Virus record (IMG/VR): IMGVR_UViG_3300006217_000018
Span: 25,725-89,724 of that record
Strand: one strand, 5' to 3'
From: a virus
Taxonomy: Duplodnaviria > Heunggongvirae > Uroviricota > Caudoviricetes
Length of the DNA stretch: 64,000 nucleotides
The number at the start of each line of letters is the position of its first letter. Position 1 is the stretch's first letter. Below the pieces are notes generated by a model. It was not told the origin of the DNA, searched no databases, and worked only from the letters and a program-made list of their open reading frames with translations. Of this stretch, positions 13,974 through 14,825 are shown one piece after another. A program made the position numbers and the translations under genes.

Positions 13974-14825
13974 ATGAGAGATAATCTTGGCGATAGGATG
14001 AAAACTTTTTATGAGCGGATTCCAAAAACAAAACTTATGAGGCGTTGTCCAGTCATATGCAGGGTTGATGGGAGGGCGTTCCATACGTTTGCCAGAAATT
14101 TTAGAAGGCCGTTTGATGATGTCCTGATTGATACAATACAGAAAACTACAAGATATCTTTGCGAGAATGTCCAGGGATGTGTTCTTGGGTATACTCAGTC
14201 AGATGAGATTTCTTTAGTATTGGTAGATTATAAAAGGCTTAATTCTTCTTCATGGTTTGATTATGAAGTTCAAAAAATGTGTAGTATTATTGCAAGTATG
14301 GCGACTTTAGCTTTTAATCGCATTTTCGAACAAAACGTTTTTGAGTTTGATAATTTCGAACCAAAAAATATCGAAGAACACGAATATAGGTATTTAGTAA
14401 AAAAATATTATGAAGCAAAGGATAAGGGGGCAATGTTTGATGCTAGAGTATTCAATATTCCCAAAGAGGAAGTTACAAATTATATATATTGGAGGCAGTT
14501 AGATGCGTCCAGAAATAGCGTCCAAATGGTGGGACGTGCTAATTTTAGCCATAAAGAATTACAGAATAAAACCAATAATGATATCCAGGACATGTTAATG
14601 ATCCAAAAAGGAATAAATTGGAATGATTTTCCTACATACCAAAAAAGAGGCACGTGTGTAGTTAAAAATGAAATTATGTTAGAGAAGGTTAGTGTGACAG
14701 AGAGATGTATGTTGCGTAATTTGGGTCAAAACATCAGTTCTTGGATTATTGATAAAGACATTCCTGTCTTTAAGGGAGAAGGGAGGGAATATATTGAGCA
14801 GCTTATAAAAGCTTTGGAAGAATAA
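13974..14825 (+). CDS. tRNA(His) guanylyltransferase-like protein (Thg1/TLP family, 3'-5' nucleotidyltransferase)
   Basis: N-terminal FYERIPKTKLMRRCPVICRVDGRAFHTFARNF...DDVLIDTIQKT...GYTQSDEISLVLVD matches the Thg1 catalytic core (iVvRiDGr.F..f, SDEiS). Confidence 0.7.
   Translation: MRDNLGDRMKTFYERIPKTKLMRRCPVICRVDGRAFHTFARNFRRPFDDVLIDTIQKTTRYLCENVQGCVLGYTQSDEISLVLVDYKRLNSSSWFDYEVQKMCSIIASMATLAFNRIFEQNVFEFDNFEPKNIEEHEYRYLVKKYYEAKDKGAMFDARVFNIPKEEVTNYIYWRQLDASRNSVQMVGRANFSHKELQNKTNNDIQDMLMIQKGINWNDFPTYQKRGTCVVKNEIMLEKVSVTERCMLRNLGQNISSWIIDKDIPVFKGEGREYIEQLIKALEE

Follow-up and report, generated by a model that had tools for sequence, protein, structure and literature searches.

To our knowledge, the Thg1 family contains the only known polymerases that work in the 3'-5' direction. 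Here we describe a Thg1-like protein (TLP) encoded at positions 13974..14825 (+ strand) of a 64,000-nucleotide stretch of viral DNA, hereafter the window, which covers positions 25,725 to 89,724 of IMG/VR record IMGVR_UViG_3300006217_000018. Judged by its family, active site and fold, the gene truly encodes an intact Thg1-like 3'-5' nucleotidyltransferase of a large (jumbo) phage, and it is a divergent new member of a phage gene type that is already known and annotated.

Enzymes of the Thg1/TLP superfamily form homotetramers made up of two dimers, and their active site is completed by residues of a partner subunit (K99' and R16' in the numbering of the Bacillus thuringiensis enzyme). Among the described relatives is this TLP of Bacillus thuringiensis (BtTLP; PDB 4kgk/4kgm; Hyde et al. 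2013, PMC3701042). Its published activities are the templated repair of 5'-truncated tRNAs and the addition of G-1, the guanosine at position -1 of tRNA-His (PMC3701042, PMC4820378). In the TLP of Methanosarcina acetivorans (MaTLP; PDB 5axk-5axn; Kimura et al. 2016, PMC4820378), a β-hairpin reads the tRNA elbow and measures the length of the acceptor stem (PMC4820378). The eukaryotic Thg1 enzymes (human 3otb, yeast 5xox, Candida 3wbz) are specific for tRNA-His and add an untemplated G-1 opposite A73. Phage members of the family have been in the literature for some time: the Thg1 of phage 201phi2-1 was noted in 2010 (PMC2904730) and that of Bc431v3 in 2013 (PMC3601020), and Iyer et al. (2021; PMC7824862) listed Thg1 among the RNA-repair enzymes of jumbo phages and read it as restoring 5' ends.

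Compared with these enzymes, the protein from the window has the same fold, catalytic triad, nucleoside triphosphate (NTP)-binding residues and WRQxDAS(K/R)NS motif as BtTLP, from which it differs in its source, being encoded on a 243-kb metagenomic phage contig, in an inserted helical hairpin of 33 residues at a site that takes up 6 residues in BtTLP, and in a β-hairpin that is 11 residues longer. With MaTLP it shares the fold (TM 0.80), R136/N137, a conserved hairpin arginine and equivalents of the anticodon-site residues N179/R188, but the two are only ~25% identical, their hairpin sequences are unrelated, and MaTLP comes from an archaeal host. The eukaryotic enzymes have in common with it the palm fold, the triad and a two-step chemistry of activation and transfer, and differ in their low identity (~20%) and in the HINNLYN motif, which the phage protein lacks. 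Its own family is that of the phage proteins of PHROG 4717 (Fnu1 gp147, Bc431v3 gp143 and those of 201phi2-1, phage G and the Lak megaphages), which the literature takes for enzymes of tRNA modification or repair and whose genomes of 88-550 kb often also carry RNA ligases, Pnkp or RtcB; from these it stands apart by its divergence, reaching at most 54.6% identity to a deposited phage and 46% to a cultured one.

Identification of the gene

In the list of open reading frames (ORFs), the gene begins with ATG and encodes 283 amino acids followed by a stop codon, and a Shine-Dalgarno-like AGGAG can be read from the sequence at 13964..13968 (+), 5 nt 5' of the start. An original prediction, made without database searches, had placed the protein in the Thg1 family on two hallmark motifs, and both can be read from the sequence: RVDGRAFH at 14061..14084 (+; residues 30-37), aligning with R28/D30/H35 of BtTLP, and SDEIS at 14199..14213 (+; residues 76-80), aligning with S74/D75/E76. 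The assignment proved right, with matches far beyond chance to Pfam Thg1, the N-terminal catalytic (palm) domain (PF04446; E 2.6e-28; 99 bits, the cut-off being 29.2; aligned over positions 2-130 of a 130-position profile), to PHROG 4717 'tRNA-His guanylyltransferase' across the full length (E 1.8e-89) and, again at full length, to BtTLP in PDB entry 4kgk (E 4.8e-60, ~40% identity). The C-terminal Thg1C profile (PF14413) scored 22.7 bits, below its Pfam cut-off of 26.3; the alignment with BtTLP extends through this domain to residue 278, and the whole-chain match to the Thg1/TLP fold has a probability of 1.00. No NCBIfam model matched the protein, no PADLOC defence model matched it or the products of its flanking genes, and a megablast search of the locus against phages returned no match. 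A scan for promoters and terminators around the gene gave counts not above those in shuffled sequence.

Active site and subtype

Residue roles were taken from the work on BtTLP (PMC3701042) and MaTLP (PMC4820378) and transferred by HMMER alignment. The carboxylate triad, D30/D75/E76 in BtTLP and D29/D76/E77 in human THG1, corresponds to D32 (first metal carboxylate), D77 (second metal carboxylate) and E78 (third carboxylate), so that loss of the Asp/Glu triad, named beforehand as what would overturn the Thg1 reading, does not apply. The BtTLP residues E12, R28, H35, S74, K99, R131 and R147 have their counterparts in E14, R30, H37, S76, K101, R158 and R174, of which R30 contacts the phosphate of the incoming NTP, H37 the 3'-OH of the activating NTP, and S76 serves the activation step. 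The triad together with E14, R30, S76, K101, R158 and R174 was invariant in an alignment of 40 sequences from the clade of this protein; in a broader alignment of 87 sequences D32 was nearly invariant (at least 90%) and the other residues of the triad and NTP site were invariant. Changes relative to BtTLP were conservative, with T38 replaced by A40, as in human THG1, and K43 of the activation site by R45, lysine and arginine alternating at positions 44/45 within the clade. The alignments also showed conservation of K101 and K18, the counterparts of the partner-subunit residues K99 and R16. H37 and the tRNA-contacting residues described below were likewise invariant or nearly so in both alignments.

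Residues that contact the tRNA are retained as well. R136/N137 of MaTLP, a pair that grips the 5' end of the tRNA together with its template base C72, correspond to R180/N181, and N179/R188, deduced to form the His-anticodon site of MaTLP, correspond to N215/K224, both invariant in the clade. In place of the eukaryotic HINNLYN, the protein has a TLP-type SRNSVQM, the motif reading WRQLDASRNSVQM; the associated WRQLDASRN, encoded at 14490..14516 (+; residues 173-181), consists of residues that are invariant or nearly so in the 40-sequence alignment. The protein also lies nearer to BtTLP (E 4.8e-60, 40% identity) than to human THG1 (E 1e-11). By these measures it is of the bacterial templated-repair TLP type, not of the eukaryotic tRNA-His-specific type, and we are almost certain that it is active. 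The residues that determine each of the two TLP binding modes have been kept, and 5'-end repair and G-1 addition would therefore both be compatible with its sequence.

Predicted structure

An AlphaFold (AF2) monomer model built from an alignment of 87 homologues with 45-92% identity reached a predicted local distance difference test score (pLDDT) of 89.4 and a predicted template-modelling score (pTM) of 0.88, whereas a shallower input of 40 sequences with ~70% identity gave a pLDDT of 46.8 and a model that was not usable. The Thg1 fold, with its RRM-like palm and fingers, was present in the model, and all 32 significant Foldseek matches in the PDB were to Thg1 or TLP structures, the next match standing at E 4e-3. 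The best match was to BtTLP (4kgm/4kgk; TM 0.81-0.87, target-normalised), followed by MaTLP and by human, yeast and Candida Thg1 (~0.7).

Two structural elaborations, the helical hairpin and the longer β-hairpin, are specific to the lineage. The insertion at residues 119-151 (14328..14426, +) was modelled as part of an extended helix (99-127), a loop (128-134) and a second helix (135-151), in blocks with pLDDT of 92-98. Among relatives otherwise ~70% identical its length differs by tens of residues, and its sequence could not be aligned across the 40-sequence clade; this hypervariability hints that one face of the enzyme is under relaxed constraint or under diversifying selection. The extended β-hairpin (residues 233-256; 14670..14741, +) is the counterpart of the elbow-reading hairpin of MaTLP, with strands at 234-239 and 242-246 modelled at a pLDDT of ~60. 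It carries a nearly invariant R248, whose equivalence to R215 of MaTLP is approximate only.

Distribution among phages

Of 50,697 deposited phage records searched with tblastn, 162 had a TLP homologue, and every one of these came from a large phage (88-550 kb). Among them are about 33 different Bacillus phages, for the most part myophages, together with phage G, 201phi2-1, XacN1, GAP32-like jumbo phages, CcrColossus, phiM12, mycobacteriophages and Lak megaphages, and most of these homologues already carry a tRNA-His guanylyltransferase annotation. The closest deposited relative (54.6% identity) is on a human faecal contig, and the closest from a cultured phage is that of Fusobacterium phage Fnu1 (46%). 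Metagenomes held far more, with at least 8,000 candidate clusters at E ≤ 1e-10; among the 120 matches listed from them, identity was 66-92% at similar length. Two conserved peptide patterns retrieved at least 586 viral contigs with a homologue from IMG/VR, mostly of 80-195 kb. The protein of the window belongs to a large clade from metagenomes alone, many members of which are 66-73% identical to it and share the variable insertion. Enzymes of this type had been called rare in phage genomes, a description that holds only when they are counted against the whole of the phage records: they are common among large phages, as a PHROG of their own, the IMG/VR contigs and the discussions of 2010, 2013 and 2021 attest.

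The phage origin of the window itself is supported by matches of most of its ORFs to PHROGs, by ANT/Bro-N and Phage_VG64 domains, by the relatives on IMG/VR viral contigs and by the presence of the identical protein on a contig of 243,188 bp.

In a comparison made with PDB 4kgk, BtTLP was 74-76% identical to the TLPs of the Bacillus myophages Hobo, BM15 and Bc431v3, and its published repair activity is on this account a close proxy for the phage enzymes. BtTLP itself may be of phage origin or have been freely exchanged with phages.

Proposed role in tRNA repair

We lean, without great firmness, towards general tRNA 5'-end repair, including the restoration of G-1, as the part played by this TLP in a phage toolkit that protects translation. 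Within this toolkit, which would maintain a usable pool of tRNAs while the phage infects its host, the enzyme would rebuild tRNAs short of 5' nucleotides; a PNK-like kinase, RlaP, the two RNA ligases and an exoribonuclease would be its other members. A 5'-monophosphate tRNA end would first be activated with ATP or GTP, a 5'-triphosphate being used directly, after which the 3'-OH of an incoming NTP, chosen for its Watson-Crick match to the acceptor stem's 3' strand, would attack the activated 5' phosphate by a two-metal mechanism; pyrophosphate would then be removed and the cycle would repeat. Addition would stop when the β-hairpin no longer reached the tRNA elbow, that is, when a 7-bp stem had been restored, and a tRNA that carries the His anticodon could be bound in a second mode and receive one further nucleotide, G-1. 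These steps are taken from homology with BtTLP and MaTLP. What the analysis demonstrates is the family, the intactness of the active site, the fold and the genomic surroundings; which RNA is acted on, to what end in vivo, and what causes the 5' damage we infer.

The ligases, kinase and nucleases that the original prediction had invoked are indeed encoded in the window, all on the + strand like the other genes of the TLP context. An RlaP-family nucleotidyltransferase (40447..41472; Pfam PF10127, E 1.2e-20) lies 26 kb downstream of the TLP gene and is followed by an RNA ligase (44445..45461; PF09414, E 2.2e-08) and by a PNK-like P-loop kinase of AAA_33/KTI12 type (45454..46368; Pfam E 3.7e-24). 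The cluster from 40447 to 46368 also holds a 322-aa protein of unknown function and an HNH protein. Further downstream are a Rv2179c-like DEDD 3'-5' exoribonuclease (58662..59234), assigned to its ORF by an FDTEF motif, and a second, small RNA ligase (59740..60363) with a KMDG nucleotidyl-lysine motif and an N-terminal YPRTYHL. PF09414 matched two ORFs of the window (best E 7.1e-32), and MazF, HNH and Uma2 domains were matched as well. The proposed repair context thus held in its gene content and failed in its arrangement: none of the repair genes adjoins the TLP gene, the RlaP-ligase-kinase cluster lying 26 kb away.

To compare related loci, we took 84 of them, representing 54 lineages when TLPs are clustered at 90% identity, clustered all-against-all the ORFs lying up to 10 kb from the TLP gene, and counted repair genes over the 53 lineages other than that of the window. 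A PNK-like kinase, RlaP or RNA ligase was found within this distance in 23 of the 53, the kinase, frequently as a fusion with an HD domain, being present in 15, RlaP in 17 and RNA ligase in 7, whereas the kinase lay within 1.5 kb of the TLP gene in only 5. Together with the 26-kb distance in the window, this points to a shared genome region and not to an operon. MazF homologues occurred near the TLP gene in 6 related lineages, NAD-salvage genes (NadE) in 12 and isochorismatase-like genes in 10. In relatives of 120-180 kb (L003-L005:8027-11783) the TLP gene stands within 2 kb of genes for Tad4, Tad2-like and YpsA/DprA-like SLOG proteins; the Tad4 and Tad2-like genes, which belong to Thoeris anti-defence, mark this as an anti-defence neighbourhood, and the surroundings of the relatives' TLP genes fit an accessory region of counter-defence and repair.

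Several observations weigh against repair as the role. In the window the TLP gene shares no operon with the kinase, ligase or RlaP genes, and no conserved partner gene of TLP was found in the 84 loci, where even the commonest neighbour was confined to 19 of the 54 lineages. The figure of 43% for lineages with a repair gene nearby has no background frequency to be set against and may do no more than reflect the clustering of accessory genes. In the literature that we searched we found no host or defence nuclease that shortens tRNA 5' ends: in those papers the targets of immune nucleases are anticodon loops, T-loops, D-loops, CCA tails and, in the acceptor stem, the 3' strand, Retron Eco2, an acceptor-stem nuclease, nicking that 3' strand and Cash cutting the T-loop. 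Since no cutter of the 5' strand emerged from this literature, the source of 5' damage is hypothetical. The biological role of bacterial TLPs is itself described as unsettled (PMC3701042).

The chief competing explanation is that the TLP is dedicated to the maturation of tRNA-His, adding G-1 after transcription to a phage or host tRNA-His that cannot retain an encoded one and so giving the phage a chargeable tRNA-His of its own; we hold this to be possible, if rather unlikely. The invariance in the clade of N215 and K224, which stand for the His-anticodon site of MaTLP, argues for it, as do the addition of G-1 by BtTLP-type enzymes (PMC4820378) and the tRNA-His genes of two TLP-positive phages, Fnu1, whose TLP is the closest from a cultured phage (L086:40194-40268; G at -1, A73), and Bc431v3 (L092:902-975; C at -1, A73). 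The A73 of these two tRNAs makes a templated G-1:C73 pair impossible, which at first seemed promising for this explanation. Against it, TLP-type enzymes favour templated addition opposite C73, whereas the tRNAs of both Fnu1 and the Bacillus phages have A73. In the seven Bacillus phages with a tRNA-His (Bc431v3 and L093-L098) C or A stands at -1, with C1-G72 and A73, and in the T4-like phage RB18 (L099:15-91) T stands at -1 with C73, so that all nine of the phage tRNA-His genes we examined, from TLP-positive and TLP-negative phages alike, are unable to form the bacterial G-1:C73 pair. A tRNA-His lacking G-1 is found also in the TLP-negative Bacillus phages JBP901, Tsamsa, Nate and Chewbecca and in RB18, and the trait consequently does not track the presence of TLP; on account of these phages, the idea that an unusual tRNA-His goes with the enzyme was rejected. 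A BLAST search with the Fnu1 tRNA-His matched Fusobacterium phages only. Physical linkage was rejected too for the stretches covered: ARAGORN found no tRNA-His in the window, which takes in 64 kb of the 243-kb contig, and in 60 loci of its clade there was none up to 10 kb from the TLP gene. Dedicated maturation is further opposed by the TLP-positive Staphylococcus phage PMBT8, which has no tRNA gene and whose TLP substrate must therefore be host RNA, and by TLPs in phages that infect Caulobacter, Brevundimonas and Sinorhizobium, hosts whose own tRNA-His reportedly lacks G-1 (Wang et al. 2007).

We rate as improbable that the TLP acts on a substrate other than tRNA, for instance by putting App/Gpp cap-like 5' ends on RNAs of phage or host or by extending another structured RNA, with the insertion setting its specificity. 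The Thg1 family makes activated 5'-5' intermediates and has been listed among non-canonical capping enzymes (PMC8131947), and the helical hairpin and longer β-hairpin depart from the characterised enzymes; yet every tRNA-contacting residue known from MaTLP is kept, and an Rfam scan of the window detected tRNA and no other, associated non-coding RNA. About as improbable, in our judgement, is 5'-editing of phage tRNAs with mismatches at acceptor positions 1-3, or the repair of misprocessed 5' ends arising from phage tRNA clusters that are tightly packed. TLPs carry out 5'-editing in the mitochondria of Dictyostelium and Acanthamoeba, and many TLP-positive phages are rich in tRNAs, Bc431v3 having 20 of them with spacers of a few nucleotides. 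Against this, 44 of the 60 clade loci have no tRNA nearby, PMBT8 has none, and among 39 distinct tRNAs within 10 kb of clade TLP genes 36 have fully paired 7-bp acceptor stems and only one has a mismatch in positions 1-3, on which grounds editing of mismatched phage tRNAs was rejected.

Other features of the window

The TLP gene lies between genes for two large proteins of unknown function, one of 705 aa (11502-13619, +; PHROG 33734) and one of 692 aa (14857-16935, +; PHROG 1735, E 1.7e-272). Neither had a match in Pfam, PDB or PADLOC, they are not paralogous to each other, and they recur in only 2 and 1 other lineages, respectively.

The sole tRNA gene of the window, found by ARAGORN, is a tRNA-Met (CAT) at 3578..3651 (+; Rfam tRNA, 36 bits), which has one mismatch, at acceptor pair 4:69. 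It directly follows two overlapping ORFs, one for a MazF/PemK-type endoribonuclease toxin homologue (2577-2984) and one of 108 aa (2977-3303).

A run of NAD-salvage genes (19125-22995) begins 4 kb downstream of the TLP gene and comprises, all on the + strand, an isochorismatase/nicotinamidase-like ORF (19125-19679; recognised solely from inspection and clustering), NAPRTase (20207-21412), an NMNAT-like ORF of cytidylyltransferase fold (21387-22013) and the NAD synthase NadE (22210-22995). These genes would supply a Preiss-Handler route to NAD+, which could plausibly counter NAD-depleting defences.

A divergent adenylosuccinate-synthetase homologue (27266-28498; Pfam E 1.6e-33, best PDB match E 2e-13) is a candidate for a PurA-like or a PurZ-like (2-aminoadenine DNA) enzyme, and in related loci such genes adjoin a vWA-TerF-like gene. 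Three DNA methyltransferases (C5, N6/N4 and Dam-like) and a PAPS-reductase-like protein are encoded within 35742-37565, 52756-53409, 57073-57834 and 54081-55127, and Band_7/SPFH, vWA-TerF-like and DUF488 proteins are encoded in a row at 47584-49756. The methyltransferases, the PAPS-reductase-like protein and this row are typical of the accessory cargo of large phages.

Implications

The gene adds a divergent, intact TLP from a large gut-type phage clade known from metagenomes alone. By itself it opens no new question, and Bc431v3, Fnu1 and PMBT8 are better suited for tests of function. The by-products of the comparison are more useful: the common lack of a templated G-1 in phage tRNA-His genes, the closeness of BtTLP to the myophage TLPs and the presence of a hypervariable insertion in an otherwise conserved enzyme. 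The first of these raises the question of how such tRNAs acquire G-1, which is normally needed by bacterial histidyl-tRNA synthetase (HisRS).

A more general proposal, that phage TLPs exist either to make phage tRNA-His usable or to counter a still-unknown host nuclease that trims 5' ends, seems to us unlikely as it stands. If the first alternative were true, TLP-positive phages would bring a eukaryote-like, post-transcriptional G-1 pathway into bacteria; if the second were true, the hypervariable hairpin at residues 119-151 could offer a surface on which an arms race is fought, or act as a module for specificity. The richness in RNA-repair and NAD-salvage genes around the TLP gene fits a picture of large phages that protect the translation apparatus against attack by the host.

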